Source of the DNA: a virus
DNA: 64,000 nucleotides
Reading direction: 5' to 3' (one strand)
Virus record (IMG/VR): IMGVR_UViG_3300033153_007754
Coordinates: 89,501-153,500 of that record
A program made the translations under genes and the position numbers. The notes under the pieces were generated by a model, which saw nothing but the letters and a program-made list of their open reading frames with translations, did no database searches and had not been told where the DNA came from. Shown piece by piece: positions 14,870 through 49,782 of the stretch. Each line of letters begins with the position of its first letter. The stretch's first letter is position 1.

Positions 14870-14940
14870 GATTCTCCTACAAATCATGGCTTAATTACCA
14901 TCTATTTACAGTATATTGATTTTTCGGGATTTGTCAAGGG
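14870..14940 (-). promoter_or_regulatory. PeSL-like cassette 1 (promoter, stem-loop, RBS)
   Basis: TTGACA-17 nt-TATACT, ATGGT-AATTAA-GCCAT, AGGAG. Confidence 0.8.
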
Positions 14941-14959
14941 TTTTGTTACTTTTTTTGTA

Positions 14960-15409
14960 TTATTTTTTAGAAATCTTATCTAACACAACTGAATGTACAT
15001 TTTCTCTTACTATTTTATAATTGTATTTAGTTTTAAATTCATCATTAAAAAAGATATAATTATGTACCACTACACCATGAACATAACCATATAATCTTAG
15101 GTGACTTGGTGGATTAAGTTCTTTTATCATTTCTTTCGCAATCTTTATATTTTCTTTTCTAACTTCTTCATAGTCTTTCAATTTACCAACTTTTTTTAAT
15201 ATTCTTTCAAATAAATTTTCTGCTGTATTTTTTTCCAATACTTTCCAGTACCAACTATTGTTGTTTATATACACTTCCCATTCATTTTCGTATTCTAAAT
15301 ATTCTACATACCCGTAATATTTTCCTAATTCATTATATAATAAATCATCAATATCTTTTTCTATTTGTTTGATTATGTTAATGTTTAATGTTCTTTTACC
15401 CTTAGTCAT
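14960..15409 (-). CDS. Early hypothetical protein
   Basis: 149 aa, downstream of cassette 2. Confidence 0.65.
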   Translation of the reverse strand: MTKGKRTLNINIIKQIEKDIDDLLYNELGKYYGYVEYLEYENEWEVYINNNSWYWKVLEKNTAENLFERILKKVGKLKDYEEVRKENIKIAKEMIKELNPPSHLRLYGYVHGVVVHNYIFFNDEFKTKYNYKIVRENVHSVVLDKISKK

Positions 15410-15411
15410 AT

Positions 15412-15480
15412 AATCCTCCCAGATTGTGGTTTAATTGCCACCTATATACAATATACTCATTTATTTAAATTTGTCAAGGC
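15412..15480 (-). promoter_or_regulatory. PeSL-like cassette 2
   Basis: TTGACA-17 nt-TATATT, GTGGC-AATTAA-ACCAC, GGAGG. Confidence 0.8.
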
Positions 15481-15499
15481 TTTTCTTACTTTTTTTTGA

Positions 15500-15575
15500 T
15501 TATTTTTTAGATATATTACCTAATACAACTGAATGTACATTTTCTCTTAGAATTTTATTATTATATTTACTTTTG
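15500..15575 (-). pseudogene. Remnant copy of the 3' end of 14960..15409
   Basis: Translates KSKYNNKILRENVHSVVLGNISKK* vs KTKYNYKIVRENVHSVVLDKISKK*; offset exactly 540 bp. Confidence 0.8.
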
Positions 15576-15590
15576 TGGATTTATGTTTTT

Positions 15591-15977
15591 TTATTTATAT
15601 TCTCTAAATTGAACATGCTTGAATAGTGGTCTCTTTTTCACAGTACCATCCGGTAAAATTTCTTCACTACTTTCTCGCCGTGTTGTAGCATACACCGCAA
15701 TAATACCATTTTTTTTACCAAAATTAACTAGGTTATATGTTACACCAAACTCACCAGATATGAACAATACATCTCCTTTGTTTAATTTTGAGATTTCCTT
15801 TTTGAATGAGTTAAGCATTTCAGAATCCAATTCCCCATCAGGTGGTACCTGTGAAAATCTCTTTTGTAAATCCTCACTAATAGTTTTAAATTTTTCAATA
15901 CCATATTTTAATGTGGCATCTTTTTTTTGATTCTCATTCATTGGGTGGCTTGTCATTTTTAACATTGTCTTATTCAT
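15591..15977 (-). CDS. csx20: Csx20-family CRISPR-associated protein (putative cOA ring nuclease)
   Basis: SHPMNENQKKDA, FSQVPP, GDVLFISGEFGVTYNLV, YATTRRES, FKHVQFREY. Start reassigned to the ATG at 15977, after AGGAG. Confidence 0.8.
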   Translation of the reverse strand: MNKTMLKMTSHPMNENQKKDATLKYGIEKFKTISEDLQKRFSQVPPDGELDSEMLNSFKKEISKLNKGDVLFISGEFGVTYNLVNFGKKNGIIAVYATTRRESSEEILPDGTVKKRPLFKHVQFREYK

Positions 15978-15979
15978 AT

Positions 15980-16050
15980 CATTCTCCTGTTGAATCATGG
16001 CTTAATTGCCATCTATCTATAACATACGGATTTTTTTAGATTTGTCAAGG
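15980..16050 (-). promoter_or_regulatory. PeSL-like cassette 3 (drives csx20)
   Basis: TTGACA-17 nt-TATGTT, perfect ATGGC-AATTAA-GCCAT, AGGAG. Confidence 0.8.
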
Positions 16051-37300: not shown

Positions 37301-37459
37301 GAATTGGAATATTTTACCCTCAATTTTTTCAAAATTATCATCTAATATTTTTTTTGGGTTAAAATCGGTAAAGAAATCATTAAATTGGTCGTAATCATCC
37401 AAATTAACCATTTCAAATAAAAATTCATTATTATGCTTCATTATCATTTCCCTCATCAA
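34307..37459 (-). CDS. Large multidomain protein, probably virion-associated
   Basis: About 1050 aa; Pro/Glu-rich linker; small domain WMWVSGDTYKHKNKIKSFGFRWGGKRKAWY. Confidence 0.6.
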   Translation of the reverse strand: MMREMIMKHNNEFLFEMVNLDDYDQFNDFFTDFNPKKILDDNFEKIEGKIFQFMGGKLPETELNVLYTNLNDYLTQDEVYDYFAMLSLSDVSVTPENVENVGKFLQIHMENIGDSNIDKFYRDITYSDLFFNTLKAQKKLLKDSFPDANIYNSLFKSDIENWKVEAPIEDTEEVVITDVPDANIDASGLNTDELSQKQWEAYKGLKNLDGLEIKLDGTWMWVSGDTYKHKNKIKSFGFRWGGKRKAWYLVDKTPRIVEPEEDIAKELETPVKPIEPVTVTQPSEPEIKAPSPATIPTPSTPLDTPEKADDVELKSVDNKGHLLDTYSFGYLIQMFENPFDDEVRKVEEIKELLMKDINQLAVVLNRLVTYGIQEWGDYHVLPNAKKFVDKANDKGWFGDTHISLANILLNGVKNGLVDLRTIVQATNIAEMFFHKNSSIMDWNDMHVFSKFKKYFRKINSETGDLFDRISDSTRLSDDVYPYLKFFRKKSNDFKTYLAAFSHIGFGDFLTKHVLPNITEKNYKEYIEFAYENSNDMGALFGIGLYPFIDLRYDDVIKTGRKYGFDKLDKKVGFTSQYRNKMLSNGLRNFVVSQPHVAKYVLMGKNAGLIDSNFAEMIIEVSDLYFDVDEKQEIIMILLGSISDDKGVEIFDASFMDTVDKYHPADAFDESYGIFSGNNKLADKFIKKHDLAIRSDNNFLHVFDFQRIRKDLIKNSVISQKEGTLFFEKFLKMLIDNIVRHNNSVVEHEGALKRDYRFSSLITGLYKGATKIAIFNALKYWYKKDENFYDEIGPYIRNSTFSPTENLVTDIESKIVVSMGEEGTDFIIDGILDEVKGVKNKITNKSDIVTLIGDLSDLNGTWRDGKSKTGKGFPFVFDSRDGTISQYDYPVTEINKTYSLNFMANEGDYDNFEPISGENVLSVNMLLKRAKKTDANLYNLSFTMFVNDEKTILKANKLPLHKVLSYMEPILEFVYGAELSEIEDLGIGKRDKFIRMIEQMFYFYLNNGKKETDKGNYLVKRKFDFKYINPDENTLNRTDYNVVIDTVEKFK

Positions 37460-38438
37460 TAATTTCTTTATAGTCTTTTAAAAATTCTTTTAAATAATAT
37501 CTATCATTTTCCTTTAATTTAATACTTAAATCTTGCACTATACTACTACTATCATAGAAAAACTGTCTACCTTCAGGGGATTTATTAAGTCTTACATTCT
37601 CTATTTTCATTAAATTATAATTCATAATTAATACATCATTTACATATACTTTTGCTTTAACAGACAAAGGGTATTCTATTCCATGTGTACTTCTATCATC
37701 AGGATAAGAATACATTTGAAATTTACTTAATATTTTTTTTACTATTTCGATTTCTTTTGTTGTTGTTGGAATCAACCTAAAATCAAATTCAGGTTCCCTT
37801 CTCGCAATATCATTAAATTTCAAATAATCAGAATCGATTTTTGGATTTATACCTTTAAAAGATTTCAACATTTCATGTGCATCAGCCAGTTTACCAGCAA
37901 CCGAACCAATGGCTTTACCAACTTTAGGTATTAAATTAAATAAATTAGATTTCGCCAATTTCTTCATTCCAATATCTTTTAATAAGTCTTCTTTTTTCAT
38001 TAAAACATCAATCAAACCTTCATTTTCAGTTTTATTTTTTAATAAATTTGCAACCATCCCTATTAAACCAGCATCTTCAACACTCCAATCTAAATCGATA
38101 CTATTTATAATTTCCATATCAACAGGAAAAAACAATAAAATCCTATCATAAATTTCAATTTTTGGTATAAATATTTCTTTAATAATATCTTTATTTTTGG
38201 TGTTTTTTTTGATTACTTCTTGACCACAACTTTCATAGTTAGCTTTTTTATTAGGATTCGTTTTAGTAACAAATTTAACAGCTTCAAGACCTAGTTCTTT
38301 TAAACTATCAATGCTTACTTTTTTTTCAGAAACATTTTTATAAAAAGTAAATTCAATATAAGTTCCACCATCACTAACATTCTCAGGAAATTCCAGTAAC
38401 GTTTTATCTTTGATTTTTTCAGGTTGTTTTTTCGCCAT
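37431..38438 (-). CDS. Baseplate tail-tube cap (T4 gp48-like)
   Basis: LEFPEN...YIEFTFY, RREPEFDFRLIP...IKKI-like segment, YSYP...IEYP, LSIKLKE. Confidence 0.75.
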   Translation of the reverse strand: MAKKQPEKIKDKTLLEFPENVSDGGTYIEFTFYKNVSEKKVSIDSLKELGLEAVKFVTKTNPNKKANYESCGQEVIKKNTKNKDIIKEIFIPKIEIYDRILLFFPVDMEIINSIDLDWSVEDAGLIGMVANLLKNKTENEGLIDVLMKKEDLLKDIGMKKLAKSNLFNLIPKVGKAIGSVAGKLADAHEMLKSFKGINPKIDSDYLKFNDIARREPEFDFRLIPTTTKEIEIVKKILSKFQMYSYPDDRSTHGIEYPLSVKAKVYVNDVLIMNYNLMKIENVRLNKSPEGRQFFYDSSSIVQDLSIKLKENDRYYLKEFLKDYKEIIDEGNDNEA

Positions 38439-38523: not shown

Positions 38524-38552
38524 TTGCAAAACTAAATTGTATGCGTTATAAT
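38524..38552 (+). promoter_or_regulatory. Sigma70-type promoter of the cas operon
   Basis: TTGCAA-17 nt-TATAAT, then GAGGT RBS before cas6. Confidence 0.7.
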
Positions 38553-38589
38553 GTGTACGTTGATTAACCACCTTTTTTGAGGTATAAAC

Positions 38590-39282
38590 ATGAAGATTTC
38601 AATAAAATTTAAGTTCACAATACAAATGGATGAATACTGGATAAGCAAACAATACAGAAGAGGTATCGTATCTCTTTTAAAAGATTTATTTGATTCTGCT
38701 GGAATTGATTTATTTAAAACAAACCAGAGAAAGCCGTATACGTTTTCAGTCAAATTCCCTAAATTCGATAAAACAACCAAAACCAATTTCATAACTAGTG
38801 AAAATTGGTTTTGGGTAAACTTTTCAGCTTATGATGATGCAATAGCAAAAAGTATAAAGTCTGAAATATATAAGATTAAATTTTTATCTGCCTTTGGTAA
38901 AGAAATATATGTAGATAAAGTAACTATTAAAGAACAAGATATAATTACAAAAAATGTTATTTTATTTAAAACATTTTCTCCTATTTTAGTAAAGGATGAA
39001 AATGGTAAAAGATTTTTAAATGATTTTAATAAAGATGTTTTTAAACAAAGGTTAATTACCAATATTAAAAATGGATATGAACAATTCACCACCGAAAAAG
39101 CAGGAAGGGTTGATGTATCTTTTAAAAAAGGTAATATGACTGTTGCTGAAACTTATGGTGGTGAAATAGGTTATAAAGGAATCATTAAACTTTTTGCACA
39201 TTCTGATGTTTTACAATTTGTTTATGAAAGTGGAATTGGAAATAAAACAGGCCAAGGCTACGGAATGTTGGAGATATTATGA
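38590..39282 (+). CDS. cas6: CRISPR-associated endoribonuclease Cas6
   Basis: KPYTFSV, FKTFSPILV and C-terminal G-loop GIGNKTGQGYGM. Confidence 0.9.
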   Translation: MKISIKFKFTIQMDEYWISKQYRRGIVSLLKDLFDSAGIDLFKTNQRKPYTFSVKFPKFDKTTKTNFITSENWFWVNFSAYDDAIAKSIKSEIYKIKFLSAFGKEIYVDKVTIKEQDIITKNVILFKTFSPILVKDENGKRFLNDFNKDVFKQRLITNIKNGYEQFTTEKAGRVDVSFKKGNMTVAETYGGEIGYKGIIKLFAHSDVLQFVYESGIGNKTGQGYGMLEIL

Positions 39283-39911
39283 AAACTATTAAATTTATAT
39301 CAAAACATCTAACCAAACTGGATTCTGATGTTAGTGGTAAATGTGCTATTTGTGGGGAAGAACATATTGGTTTCAAACTAAAAAAAGTTCTTTCAGCGAA
39401 TTTTAATGATTGGAAATACATCAAAGATGGTAGTACAAAACATGTTTGTGTTGATTGCCAAAGTTGCTTGGGTTCTAAAAACTTTGATGGAAAAGCATTA
39501 AGAAATTATTCTGTTATTATTACAAAAAAAGAAATTAAAAAAATTAAAAGGTCTGACATATTAGAAGTCATTAGAAATCCATTAAAAGAATTTGTTATTA
39601 TAGTTAATTTTTCTCAAAAAAAACACGCTTTTTGGGATGCAAAAATAAATAACAATAAAAGACACACATATATAGCAACAGACAAGGGAAGTTATATTTT
39701 AAATAATAAAAACTTTTTAGAACTATACAATGATTTATTTACATTGTATGAAATGAAAATAAGTAAAACTGAAATGAGGAGTGGAAAATACAATTTTATA
39801 AATTTAATGAAAAACAATAATATTTTTGATATTGATAATAAAATAAAAAAACAACGAGGTACAAACAATTTTGATTTTGCCATTTGGTTGTTACATAAGG
39901 AGGAAAAATGA
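39279..39911 (+). CDS. csf1: Type IV large subunit Csf1 (Cas8-like)
   Basis: CAICG...SANFNDW...VCVDC zinc finger, QKKHAFW; context. Confidence 0.75.
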   Translation: MKTIKFISKHLTKLDSDVSGKCAICGEEHIGFKLKKVLSANFNDWKYIKDGSTKHVCVDCQSCLGSKNFDGKALRNYSVIITKKEIKKIKRSDILEVIRNPLKEFVIIVNFSQKKHAFWDAKINNNKRHTYIATDKGSYILNNKNFLELYNDLFTLYEMKISKTEMRSGKYNFINLMKNNNIFDIDNKIKKQRGTNNFDFAIWLLHKEEK

Positions 39912-41110
39912 TTAAAGTAGATTACAATTTTACAACAACAACACCAGTTCACACAGGGGCCGACACTAATATGGGAACACTAAAGTCTTTAAGAAGACAG
40001 AAGGTTATATTAAAAAAGGCAAAGACTGAAAAAACAAAATACAACACTGAAATGAGAAGGGAAGCATTAAGAGATATTCTTTTTGCAGTTTATAGTAAAA
40101 TTGATAAAGACCAAATTAAAGGAAAAAGATTAATGAAGATTTGGGATGAATTTCATTCCAAAGTTTTACAAGCTGCAACAGCATCAAATAAAATTCAGTT
40201 CTTAAACCGATTATCTCAACTTTGGGATATTAAATCGATTGATGACACCCTGATTTTACAACATTTGGACTATATGTCAGACAGTGAATTATTACAAACT
40301 GTGAGAGACGAAAGCATTTATCTTGTTTTATCTGTTAGAAAATTAAGAGATGACAAAAAGAATAAAGTAAAGAAGACAAAAAATAATCTATTTAGTAACA
40401 TTGAAGAAAAAAAAGAGGTTGAAATTAAAAAATATTATGACCTTGTTCCAGCAATTTCAGGGAATTCAATTAGAGGTATTTTAAGAAGAATTTCCATGAA
40501 GGATTTTGTTGATAGGGTTGGTATAACAAAACTACCAAAAGACTTGTATCATATTCTATTTACTGGTGGAGTACTAGATAGTTCAACCCAATTTGAAAAC
40601 TTAGATAGAAGAGAATCTTTTATAAAAAATAACCCACTTGTAGCCGTTTTTGGTTCTGCTATTGGAAATATGACAATTGAAGGTTTATTATCTGTTGGAT
40701 GGGCTTACCCAAAATGTTTAGAGATGGGTACAAGTGATAAATCTTACTGGACTTATCTTGATACAGTTTTTCAAACAAGAAGGGATGATTCAGAAATTCA
40801 ACACTTTTTGGAATTAGAACAAGGGCATCCTGGAACATCACAAATGAAATATGAATATGAGGTTTTTGCAACAGGAACACCTTTTACACATGCATTTAGA
40901 TTCATGGAACTTGATGATATTACAACATCAGCTTTTTGGAGGGTATTGGAGTTATTTAAAGAAAACAGTAGTATTGGTGGAATGAAAGCAATTGGTAACT
41001 CATATATAGATTTATCAGAAATCAAAATACCAAAAAATGCAAGTAAATTATATTTGGATTATTTAGAAAAAAATAAAAAAACAATAAAAGATTTTTTCGG
41101 GAACTTATAA
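39908..41110 (+). CDS. csf2: Type IV backbone Csf2 (Cas7) with an internal Cas11-like helical insertion
   Basis: TTTTPVHTG, VPAISGNSIRGILRR, LFTGG, NPLVAVFG, IGGMKAIG G-loop; about 105-aa helical insert at roughly aa 47-150. Confidence 0.85.
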   Translation: MIKVDYNFTTTTPVHTGADTNMGTLKSLRRQKVILKKAKTEKTKYNTEMRREALRDILFAVYSKIDKDQIKGKRLMKIWDEFHSKVLQAATASNKIQFLNRLSQLWDIKSIDDTLILQHLDYMSDSELLQTVRDESIYLVLSVRKLRDDKKNKVKKTKNNLFSNIEEKKEVEIKKYYDLVPAISGNSIRGILRRISMKDFVDRVGITKLPKDLYHILFTGGVLDSSTQFENLDRRESFIKNNPLVAVFGSAIGNMTIEGLLSVGWAYPKCLEMGTSDKSYWTYLDTVFQTRRDDSEIQHFLELEQGHPGTSQMKYEYEVFATGTPFTHAFRFMELDDITTSAFWRVLELFKENSSIGGMKAIGNSYIDLSEIKIPKNASKLYLDYLEKNKKTIKDFFGNL

Positions 41111-41838
41111 TGTTTTATTCAGAAAAACAACTTAATTATAAAATAGATGGTGCAATTAAAACAATTAATACAGCATTGGAACAAGTAGCAAATCCATACA
41201 TTGCTTGTAGTTGGGGAAAAGATAGCATTGTGATGTTATGGTTAATAAGAAAAATTGACAAGAATATCCCAGTTGTTTACATGAATTCTAATTACTCATT
41301 TCCAGATAATTATGAATTCAGAGATAGGATGTTAAAAGAATGGAATATAAAACATTATATTGAACTTCCACCCGTTTCTGATTATAAAGAAATAGTTGAA
41401 ACTTTTGGTTTACCTGGTATTTCCAGAAAATCACAAGACCAAGAAAAAGTTGTTTCTAAATTAAAAAAACAATTAAGACCTGAAATTAAAGAATTTGATT
41501 CAGTGTTTTTAGGTATAAGAGCATCTGAAAGTAGGGCAAGACAAAATATGATAAGATATTCAGGTAAAATAAACACCCTAAAAAATGGAATTACAAAAAT
41601 AATGCCAATTGCAGACTGGACTTTCAAAGAAATGTGGCAAATTGTAAAGGAAAATAATATACCAATGAATACCATATATTCAAAAGATAAATTTTCATCA
41701 CCTGAATGGATAAGAAATTCAGGAATACTATCAACTGATGGGGCTTCGTCTGGAAAAATACAATGGATTAAATATTATTATCCAGCAATTTACAGAAAGT
41801 TATCAGTTGATTATCCGGAGGTAAAAGGGTATGTATAA
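41110..41838 (+). CDS. CysH/PAPS-reductase-like protein (type IV-B accessory)
   Basis: ACSWGKDS PP-loop, FLGIRASESRAR, MPIADWT, IPMNTIY. Confidence 0.85.
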   Translation: MFYSEKQLNYKIDGAIKTINTALEQVANPYIACSWGKDSIVMLWLIRKIDKNIPVVYMNSNYSFPDNYEFRDRMLKEWNIKHYIELPPVSDYKEIVETFGLPGISRKSQDQEKVVSKLKKQLRPEIKEFDSVFLGIRASESRARQNMIRYSGKINTLKNGITKIMPIADWTFKEMWQIVKENNIPMNTIYSKDKFSSPEWIRNSGILSTDGASSGKIQWIKYYYPAIYRKLSVDYPEVKGYV

Positions 41839-42466
41839 GATAACATTTAAAATGGTTTCACCTGTTGTTTTAATGGATAATGTCACCTTTGATTCAATAC
41901 TTGCATATTGTGTATATAGTCATTATAGAAAAATTACTGATATTAAAACATCTGGTGGAAAAGAAATTGATGAAAGCAAACAAGACATACCAGTAACAAA
42001 ACATAAGGATGGTTTTTATCTTGCCAGTTGGGATATTACAACAGAAGAACACGAAAGTGTTGAAAGATGGCGGAAAAGATGGGATAACACAAATGATAGA
42101 CTTGCTGATTTTAAAAAAGCAAAAAGAAAAATAGACACTGCACGAGGTAAATATAAATCATATGATATGCCAATTGTAGTAAAAAGCATTGATGAAATAA
42201 GTTTTTATTTTAAATCAAAGGAGGTGGGAAAAGTAAGTTTTTTCATAAATAACTACCTTGTTGGGATTGGTAAGAAAGTTAAAATGGGGTATGGATGGTT
42301 TTCTGGGTTTGAAATAGAAAAAGTAAAAGATAGTGATGTTTTATATTATAGACCAACACCCAAAAACTTTAAATCACCACTTAAAACGATTGATGGTTTT
42401 GGTGGAATTAAACCACCATATTGGCACAATCAACAAGACATAAAAATTCCATCACTACATTTCTAA
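41831..42466 (+). CDS. csf3: Type IV Csf3 (Cas5)
   Basis: MVSPVV...FDSILAY, GKYKSYDMP, GIGKKVKMGYGW G-loop, RPTP, KPPYW. Confidence 0.85.
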   Translation: MYKITFKMVSPVVLMDNVTFDSILAYCVYSHYRKITDIKTSGGKEIDESKQDIPVTKHKDGFYLASWDITTEEHESVERWRKRWDNTNDRLADFKKAKRKIDTARGKYKSYDMPIVVKSIDEISFYFKSKEVGKVSFFINNYLVGIGKKVKMGYGWFSGFEIEKVKDSDVLYYRPTPKNFKSPLKTIDGFGGIKPPYWHNQQDIKIPSLHF

Positions 42467-42577: not shown

Positions 42578-43033
42578 TTAATACCAACTTAATTCAACAC
42601 TTTCAGTGTTAATTTTTAAAAGATACAGTCCGTCTATACTGTATCCTGCTGAAATATTAGTAAAGTCCAGACCAACTTTATAAAGTACTTTTGCCACAGC
42701 TTGTTCTAAGTCACACACCGGAAAAGAATAACTTAGTGTTCCCATATTTTCTTCAAGCAACATATGCAGAAGTTTTTCTTCAAATTCTTCCTGCAATGAA
42801 TTGAAAACCACCATCTTACTAAAATATTTATTTATATCCTCACCCCTTCTAAGGTGGGGTGTAAAGTCTTCCATGAATTCCCACATTGGTAAAACAATAA
42901 TGCCTTCAAATTCTTCAGGTTTTTTTTCTTTAAAACCACCAAATTTAGCAACTTTGTTATAATTATGTGACAGAACCTCTTTACCTGCTTGCGTTAAATG
43001 TAGTTTTATTTTTCCATTTAATGAAAATTCCAT
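42578..43033 (-). CDS. Hypothetical protein (likely start MEFSLNGK), paralogous to 43053..43301
   Basis: IKLHLTQAGKEVL vs VKMVLTEEGRKLV; AAGGAG precedes the internal ATG. Confidence 0.55.
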   Translation of the reverse strand: MEFSLNGKIKLHLTQAGKEVLSHNYNKVAKFGGFKEKKPEEFEGIIVLPMWEFMEDFTPHLRRGEDINKYFSKMVVFNSLQEEFEEKLLHMLLEENMGTLSYSFPVCDLEQAVAKVLYKVGLDFTNISAGYSIDGLYLLKINTESVELSWY

Positions 43034-43052
43034 TTTATTCTCCTTATTATTA

Positions 43053-43301
43053 TTAATTATTAACAATTTCAAATTCCCCATTAAGAATATATTTAGAGAA
43101 ACCAACCCTAGTATCTCTTTCAGCCCCAAATATAAATAAAAAAGTTGAAAAATTCATGTCTACATTTTCATCAACTTCACTTTGTGTTGGTAAACCTTCG
43201 TTTACCGCATCATTATTTAAATGTTTCAGTACTAGTTTCCTGCCTTCTTCTGTCAACACCATTTTTACAATTGTTTTTATATTTACCTTTGTGTTACACA
43301 T
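43053..43301 (-). CDS. Early hypothetical protein
   Basis: Downstream of cassette 5. Confidence 0.6.
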   Translation of the reverse strand: MCNTKVNIKTIVKMVLTEEGRKLVLKHLNNDAVNEGLPTQSEVDENVDMNFSTFLFIFGAERDTRVGFSKYILNGEFEIVNN

Positions 43302-43303
43302 AC

Positions 43304-43373
43304 CATCCTCCTATGGGTTGTGGCTTAATTGCCATCTATCTACAATATACGGATTTTTTCGGATTTGTCAAGT
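43304..43373 (-). promoter_or_regulatory. PeSL-like cassette 5
   Basis: TTGACA-17 nt-TATATT, ATGGC-AATTAA-GCCAC, AGGAGG. Confidence 0.8.
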
Positions 43374-43523
43374 GTTTTTTTTTAATTTTTTTTGAAATGT
43401 GCTTTTTTTTCTATTTAACTACTCAATTAATTTTTGGTTGTATTGTTTAATTCTATTAAGTTAATCTTAGGTATTTTAGGGTACATAAACAATATATCAT
43501 AATCAATAAAGATATATTCTTTC

Positions 43524-49122: not shown

Positions 49123-49782
49123 CTATTTTTTTTCGTCACCATTTTCATACCAATATGTGTAATCCCCTTGACGGCAACCATTTACGTAATTAGATTCACA
49201 TCGTTTCTTTCCATCCATGTAATATTCTATATATTTACCATGTTCTTTTCCATTTACATAATCACGTTCCCTTTCTTTATTACCATCTTCATCCCACCAA
49301 GTTACTTTACCACATATTTTACCATTCACATAATTAACAAACCTTCGTTTCTTACCGTTTTCATGCCACCAAATTTCTTTACCATGTTTTTTACCATTTT
49401 TATGATTTATTTCAAATTCTTTTTTATGATTTTCATAGTATTCTATTTTTAAACCATGTTTAAGACCATCTTTATAGTTTATTTCCCATGCCTTATCACC
49501 ATTATCATACCAAAAAACCTCTTTACCATCTTTTTCCCCATCCTTAAAATCTATTTCCCATTGTTTATCTCCATATTCACTGTAATAAACCTCTTTACCA
49601 TCTTTTTTTCCATCTTTGTAGTTTTCTTCTGATATTACTTTACCATCTTCCCCGTAATAAATCTCTTTACCATGTTTTTTTCCATCTTTATAATTAATTT
49701 CAATTTTTTTATTGCCATTACTATAATTATCAACATAAACACCTGTATATGGTACATTATTTTTAAGATACATCTGCATCAC
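49123..49782 (-). CDS. MORN-variant repeat protein (YwqK-like)
   Basis: About eight 24-aa units EINYKDGKKHGKEIxWxENGxK; 72-bp periodicity in the DNA. Confidence 0.8.
   Translation of the reverse strand: MMQMYLKNNVPYTGVYVDNYSNGNKKIEINYKDGKKHGKEIYYGEDGKVISEENYKDGKKDGKEVYYSEYGDKQWEIDFKDGEKDGKEVFWYDNGDKAWEINYKDGLKHGLKIEYYENHKKEFEINHKNGKKHGKEIWWHENGKKRRFVNYVNGKICGKVTWWDEDGNKERERDYVNGKEHGKYIEYYMDGKKRCESNYVNGCRQGDYTYWYENGDEKK

Follow-up and report, generated by a model that had tools for sequence, protein, structure and literature searches.

A five-gene cas operon in a complete phage genome

The final 64 kb of the virus record IMGVR_UViG_3300033153_007754, hereafter the window (64,000 nucleotides, positions 89,501–153,500 of the record), contains five overlapping plus-strand open reading frames (ORFs) at 38590–42466, which very probably form a phage-borne, array-less CRISPR-Cas cassette of type IV-B that belongs to a mainly viral clade with Cas11 inside Csf2 and combines the usual CasCysH with an unusual, coupled Cas6 of type I-B lineage at its head. 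The genes are cas6 (38590–39282; 230 amino acids, aa; Cas6b), csf1 for the type IV large subunit (39279–39911; 210 aa), csf2 for Cas7 with an inserted Cas11-like domain (39908–41110; 400 aa), a cysH-like gene for the PP-loop enzyme CasCysH (41110–41838; 242 aa) and csf3 for Cas5 (41831–42466; 211 aa). Consecutive frames overlap by 4, 4, 1 and 8 nt, a plausible ribosome-binding site precedes each of them, with GAGG about 8 nt 5' of the cas6 ATG, and the flanking ORFs at 37431–38438 and 42578–43129 are both encoded on the minus strand. These coordinates bear out the first-pass annotation, which had described five overlapping genes running opposite to their neighbours.

A single sigma70-type promoter had also been assigned to the operon. 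The best match in the region, TTGCAA-17 nt-TATAAT at 38524–38552 on the plus strand, scores 10/12 and lies in the 150-nt intergenic gap ahead of cas6, but 27 sigma70-like matches were found where 29 are expected from shuffled sequence, and since such matches are not above chance in this AT-rich DNA, the promoter candidate is only plausible.

The source record is complete (153,500 bp, 26.8% GC, 114-nt terminal repeat) and represents an uncultured T4-like phage. Its capsid gene is of the T4 gp23 type, only ~25% identical to the gp23 of cyanophages and vibriophages, and the gene directly upstream of the operon is baseplate-like. The operon is placed on the opposite strand, flanked by late structural genes and by unknown genes; the earlier description of the operon as phage-encoded stands. 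Megablast of the region against GenBank phages returned no match, nor did tblastn of Csf2 against 50,697 phages.

A five-gene block on the opposite strand that shares nothing else with the other viruses carrying such a cassette is moron-like, and might be a passenger or a decaying cassette with no current function in the phage. We regard this as highly improbable, as none of the five frames is broken and their overlaps are tight, the base composition is fully phage-adapted (GC content at third codon positions, GC3, is 18–20%, matching the rest of the phage), family-invariant residues are retained in every protein, and contigs from two further metagenome samples encode an identical Cas6 with csf1 and csf2 after it.

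Effector subunits, CasCysH and class assignment

Type IV-B loci are defined by csf1, cas11, csf2, csf3 and a cysH-like gene, and lack an array and Cas6. Typing with hidden Markov models (HMMs) of Cas families assigned all five genes, in agreement with the first-pass view of a type IV-B-like system with a Cas6 of its own. Csf1, which carries CxxC...CxxC cysteines, matched the PADLOC model Csf1_0_IV (8.3e-33), Csf2 matched Csf2_0_IV with residues 175–396 (1.5e-43), and Csf3, whose alignment shows a GIGKK-x-S-x-GYG loop, matched Csf3_0_IV (9.9e-31). The three are divergent members, since the NCBIfam equivalog cut-offs are not reached (Csf1, TIGR03114, 52.5 bits for a cut-off of 140; Csf2, TIGR03115, 29.8 for 130; Csf3, TIGR03116, 65.7 bits for 140); identical copies of Csf1 have a precomputed match to PF27781. 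The top Foldseek matches of Csf2 are type IV Csf2 chains, i.e., 7xg1, 8rfj and the type IV-B structure 7jhy (E 1e-8 to 1.5e-10).

The first-pass annotation listed the five genes correctly, but the Cas11 subunit that it did not list is not missing: it sits inside Csf2. Residues ~47–152 (40046–40363, plus strand) form a Cas11-like helical insert, the N-terminal region matches PADLOC Cas11_1_IV (5.6e-11, residues 49–158), and in the AlphaFold2 (AF2) model, with a predicted local distance difference test (pLDDT) score of 82.5, helices 47–152 are located between Cas7-core strands 30–43 and 171–181. The incorporation of Cas11 into Csf2 fixes the stoichiometry of large and small filaments at 1:1 and may ease reconstitution.

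Csf2 queries brought up 16 further viral contigs, 6 from metagenome-assembled genomes, 57 metagenome contigs and a contig from the European Nucleotide Archive (ENA ERZ23491061, here L066), which gives a clade of ~80 loci, mostly virus-borne, in which full-length Csf2 is conserved and the Cas11 insert is kept in all aligned relatives. Csf2 matches covering the N-terminal half carry the insert, and the weakest metagenome matches align to the core only. Plasmid matches, mostly canonical actinobacterial type IV-B plasmids and a few archaeal ones, cover only residues ~176–398. No description of a Cas11-in-Csf2 fusion was found in the literature searched, going by which the fusion clade appears to be new. 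The viral contigs of the clade span 29–55% GC, and because those compared share only Csf genes with the phage, the cassette is taken to move between unrelated viruses.

Close to the N-terminus of Csf2, after the first strand, an H-T-G-S-D motif ends in an Asp (D19; 39962–39964) that hardly varies within the clade. Its location is near that of the RNA-cleaving Asp in Csm3, and its placement for catalysis is putative. The Csf1 C-termini in the clade read ...LL-x-x-LNK, in which no sliding-clamp-binding motif was recognised by eye.

The CysH-like protein (PF01507, 91.4 bits) has an S-x-G-K-D-S PP-loop and a G-x-R-x-x-E motif, both invariant in 13 relatives, and the alignment of relatives shows no conserved C-terminal catalytic Cys. 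This is in agreement with the description of CasCysH by Taylor et al. as having a PP-loop and lacking the catalytic cysteine (PMC8175902). The location of the gene between cas7 and cas5 had been read as a sign of an integral subunit, however, our present data lend little weight to that argument. Only in about half of the loci of the clade does cysH lie between csf2 and csf3, and in the remainder it lies 3' of csf3; because its position varies, gene order is weak evidence for CysH as a subunit. A three-chain prediction of CysH with Csf2 and Csf3 gave a median of 0.39 compared with 0.01 for the best control, with partner pLDDT values of 83 or more and agreement between runs in at least 74% of contacts, which lends weak support to a predicted docking of CysH on Csf2/Csf3 as a subunit of the complex.

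In several loci the operon is interleaved with other genes. IbrA-like genes (PAPS reductase plus DUF3440) lie between cysH and csf3 in three loci (L005:9999-11836, L009:10915-12048 and L091:9021-11755) and just downstream of haloarchaeal plasmid type IV-B in two (L054:6744-8678 and L055:6587-8661), and ParB_N-type genes accompany them in 3 of these 5. The association of type IV-B with an IbrA-like/ParB_N pair, predicted to modify DNA, is a recurrent one, and the interleaved ParB and IbrA-like genes support the published idea of nucleic-acid modification by type IV-B systems.

With respect to class, the phage operon contains Csf2, Csf1 and Csf3, a Cas11-like subunit and a cysH-like gene without the catalytic Cys. 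Cas1, Cas2 and DinG (DEAD_2) were not found in the whole 153.5-kb genome by searches that included positive controls, and an array is likewise absent, so that their absence, noted earlier for 64 kb, holds for the entire genome. None of the five genes of the operon, and none of the flanking ORFs that were scanned, gave a match to a helicase family, the RecD family of type IV-D itself not having been searched. Only the cas6 at the head of the operon departs from the definition, and since exceptions are documented, its presence makes the operon a variant of type IV-B and is therefore no ground for exclusion. The first-pass statement that type IV-B generally lacks Cas6 describes the typical locus, but Cas6 is present in two relatives discussed below and in 12 published instances, termed 'rare exceptions' (Pinilla-Redondo et al. 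2020, PMC7038947).

Compared with plasmid type IV-B systems, i.e., that of Mycobacterium sp. JS623 (7JHY) and those of Rhodococcus and Mycobacterium plasmids, the phage operon shares all four effector components as well as a CasCysH that has a PP-loop but lacks a catalytic Cys, and it is likewise devoid of an array, adaptation genes, DinG and a nuclease. In its fold the Csf2 core agrees with 7jhy, and actinobacterial plasmid Csf2 is 30–33% identical to the phage protein. Unlike in the plasmid systems, Cas11 lies within Csf2, Cas6 is present, and the carrier is a lytic-type T4-like phage. Virus-borne type IV-B is already known from the archaeal Fuxiviridae, where it comes with a two-repeat mini-array and where counter-defence or inter-element conflict has been proposed (PMC10541130). 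Both systems are encoded by viruses and have a CysH-like gene adjoining Csf3; however, Cas6 is mentioned nowhere in that paper, whereas the phage operon has Cas6 and no array, and the host of the phage is likely bacterial, unlike that of the Fuxiviridae.

Cas6 and the search for its RNA

Cas6 exceeds the cut-offs of TIGR01877 (83.1 bits; cut-off 58.65) and PF01881 (65.5 bits) and matches PADLOC Cas6b (2.6e-33). Its AF2 model (pLDDT 93.6) has template modelling (TM) scores of 0.77–0.83 to the solved Cas6 structures 5yi6, 3qjj and 3i4h, and it comprises two RRM-like domains and a C-terminal G-rich loop, GIGNKTGQGYGM. Type I-B Cas6b is the closest sequence family, and the closest relative among 1.8 billion representative proteins is 35% identical; compared with type I-B, the phage operon lacks Cas8b, Cas3 and an array, and its Cas6 is coupled to csf1. 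All residues conserved in the type I-B relatives are retained (Y22, R23, K31 and K48, together with the SP motif and G-rich loop), including the equivalents of the catalytic Lys (K48) and Tyr/Arg (Y22, R23) of the family. The position of the catalytic His46 of PfCas6 is occupied by a His neither in this protein nor in its type I-B relatives, and when solved structures are ranked by sequence similarity, the Cas6-related proteins 3ufc and PH0350 are among the best matches. The phage-like GC3 of cas6 (18%, like the remaining operon) and its 4-nt ATGA overlap with csf1 mark it as an old, integrated part of the operon.

Relatives of this Cas6 with known context head cas6-cas8b-cas7-cas5-cas3 operons or adjoin arrays, with repeats of 29–30 nt that end in ATTTAAAG or TTAGAAAC; one relative has a reverse transcriptase after it, and another is solitary.

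Within the clade, Cas6 occurs in 3 of the ~80 loci, i.e., in this phage, in L066 (csf2-cysH-csf3-cas6) and in L091 (JACCDR012055788.1; csf1-csf2-cysH-(ParB_N, IbrA-like)-csf3-cas6). All three have Cas11 within Csf2, a cysH that immediately follows csf2, and a member of the Cas6b family among the genes of the operon; in L066 and L091, however, cas6 follows csf3 instead of preceding csf1, and the protein is only ~30% identical to that of the phage. In L066, the closest operon, this low identity of a Cas6 encoded at the opposite operon end compares with 62% for CysH, 52% for Csf2 and 47% for Csf3. In a quick tree the three Csf-linked Cas6 proteins are scattered, and because the approximately unbiased (AU) test does not reject a single clade of them (p 0.545), one or several acquisitions are equally compatible with the data. 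The 12 published loci, set beside the phage operon here by description, have in common with it an array-less type IV-B system with Cas6, and notable on the phage side are a Cas6 at most 35% identical to any relative, the head position, and the Cas11-Csf2 fusion. The head position and extreme divergence of the phage Cas6 appear to be new, as does the demonstration from a complete genome that an array is absent alongside type IV-B and Cas6.

No Cas6 was found in 15 other virus records of the clade, 5 of which are at least 92% complete; a lone 14-bit signal among them adjoins a methyltransferase and was dismissed. An ORF upstream of csf1 in L002 is likewise not Cas6. In the Thermococcus nautili plasmid NZ_OX281346.1 (L052:5734-6477), a gene annotated as Cas6 between Csf2 and a PAPS-reductase gene is really Csf3 (Cas5), with an hhalign value of 99.3% over the full length, and some reported cases of Cas6 in type IV-B may be the same mislabel.

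An RNA for Cas6 was sought across the phage genome. Chains of exact 11-mers combined with matches of at least 22/26 at offsets of 40–110 revealed no array or mini-array in the whole 153.5 kb, so that there is no cognate array elsewhere in the genome, and the sole periodic signals were 72-nt protein repeats of MORN type. Many genes are built from such 72-nt (24-aa) MORN-like repeats, at 49234–49624 of the window and at 3.7–25.6 kb of the genome. Single copies similar to the repeats that accompany the nearest Cas6 relatives (GTTTTAGT..GGATTTAAAG, GTTTCAATTCAACTATATATAGGTTAGAAAC and the generic GTTTCA..GAAAC) occur in the genome at chance level, the best one inside a coding region. Repeats around the operon were low-complexity matches only, no structured element flanks the operon (z = -1.0 for the fold of the downstream intergenic stretch), and Rfam gave zero matches at gathering scores in the 64-kb window. 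An ORF at 15591–15998 (minus strand) that had been labelled Csx20-like, and is thus at most a putative ring nuclease, had no Pfam match at E <= 0.01 and was not used as a sign of a host type III system.

A recurrent element of the genome is a promoter-hairpin cassette of ~14 copies, which consists of CTTGACAAATCC, a TATACT/TATATT -10 box, a 5'-terminal hairpin (A/G)AUGGY-AAUUAA-GCCAU and a second hairpin hiding the ribosome-binding site. Copies are located at 43321–43378 (minus strand), 14886–16014 (minus) and 63375 (plus) of the window, with ~9 more across the genome; they precede unrelated genes and look like an early regulon. The lack of an array next to a Cas6 invites a substrate of the phage's own, and the 5'-terminal hairpin behind these ~14 early promoters would be such a non-array RNA, with Csf-CysH regulating or marking phage transcripts or DNA. 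The copy number, the covariation of the stem from U-G to C-G, and the copy at 43321–43378, 850 bp downstream of csf3, all speak for this. It is nevertheless unlikely, as the cassette is more simply explained as a 5' stabiliser with a hairpin that hides the ribosome-binding site, it is unlike the repeats of the nearest Cas6 relatives, and the cas operon itself has no copy. Its absence from all fetched relatives is uninformative either way.

No array was found in the virus genomes of five relatives fetched whole. In contrast to these, the phage contig L006, which encodes a portal, a ClpP protease and an HK97 capsid, carries an array of 11 type I-C-like repeats, GTTTCAATCCACGCCCCCGCGCGGGGGGCGAC, at L006:10417-11107, 950 bp from its Csf operon. 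This suggests that guidance by CRISPR RNA (crRNA) is possible in the clade, the link between array and operon being putative. Two L006 spacers gave only self-matches against IMG/VR, and the repeat occurs, singly or in small arrays, on 8 other viral contigs, none of which (0/8) has Csf genes.

Host CRISPR transcripts as a proposed substrate

The function of type IV-B is unsolved with respect to both the RNA carried and the role of CasCysH, and a coupled Cas6 makes the RNA question directly approachable. Cas6 proteins bind RNA in a sequence- or structure-specific manner, a property that speaks for a defined RNA, and a dedicated substrate, as proposed in the first-pass annotation, is a reasonable inference from the coupling. 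We tentatively favour the reading that Cas6 captures host CRISPR transcripts for the Csf complex, to which we assign a probability of roughly 0.35. The operon would be read from a host-type promoter, and Csf1, Csf3 and several Cas11-Csf2 subunits would come together on a small RNA, following the pattern of the solved type IV-B complex. Cas6 would provide a defined form of this RNA, for which it would bind, and probably cut, an element resembling a repeat. CRISPR transcripts of the host itself would be the most likely source, because the phage genome is without a repeat element and the arrays served by the relatives of this Cas6 are of type I-B or type III. The loaded complex might then withhold guides from host effectors or reuse host spacers against competing elements, and CasCysH, as an ATP-using PP-loop enzyme without the cysteine of sulfonucleotide reductases, may act on the bound nucleic acid.

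What favours capture of host transcripts is the combination of the repeat specificity of Cas6 proteins, a phage without a repeat of its own, and the fast divergence of Cas6 relative to the other subunits. The identity of ~30% to Cas6 of L066, as compared with 47–62% for the other subunits, fits a Cas6 that tracks different host repeats. An extended form of this reading is that the phage Cas6 cuts guides from host CRISPR transcripts as a fast-diverging adaptor to the host repeat, and that the Csf complex, loaded with these guides, either blinds host effectors or turns the immune memory of the host to its own use by directing modification or silencing of competing phages and plasmids by CasCysH; taken as a whole this is distinctly unlikely.

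Several observations weigh against the capture of host transcripts. No substrate of Cas6 was found, and cleavage by Cas6 is not assured, since the equivalent of His46 is absent. Cas6 is also dispensable for the core function of the clade, because most relatives, including the five near-complete virus genomes, have neither Cas6 nor an array. Furthermore, draining newly made crRNA would probably do little against effectors loaded before a lytic infection. Finally, according to the account of Zhou 2021 given in PMC8175902, the RNA carried by the solved type IV-B complex was heterogeneous and not of CRISPR origin, and type I-E crRNAs expressed alongside were not incorporated.

This last result, obtained with Mycobacterium type IV-B complexes, also speaks for a system without a defined guide, in which a Csf filament coats heterogeneous RNA or nucleic acid, CasCysH modifies nucleic acid, e.g., for restriction evasion or as an epigenetic mark, and Cas6 acts as an RNA-binding cap or assembly factor, possibly non-catalytic. 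Such a role would be compatible with a Cas6 that lacks the catalytic His and matches 3ufc and PH0350 in sequence, with the absence of Cas6 from ~77/80 clade members and of arrays from nearly all, and with the predicted DNA modifiers, IbrA-like and ParB_N, that are inserted in the operons of L005, L009 and L091 and also stand beside haloarchaeal type IV-B loci. However, the phage Cas6 is intact, it is coupled to csf1 and retains every residue of the conserved set of its functional type I-B relatives, and the specificity of RNA binding by Cas6 points to a defined RNA. We regard an undefined guide as doubtful, and retain capture of host CRISPR transcripts as the preferred reading.

A minor observation concerns the metagenome contig L087, which contains repeats with a period of 73 nt (GTAGAAAAAAAGGTAAAGGTAGAAGGTA...) at L087:3841-4025 and upstream, 2–4 kb upstream of its Csf operon.

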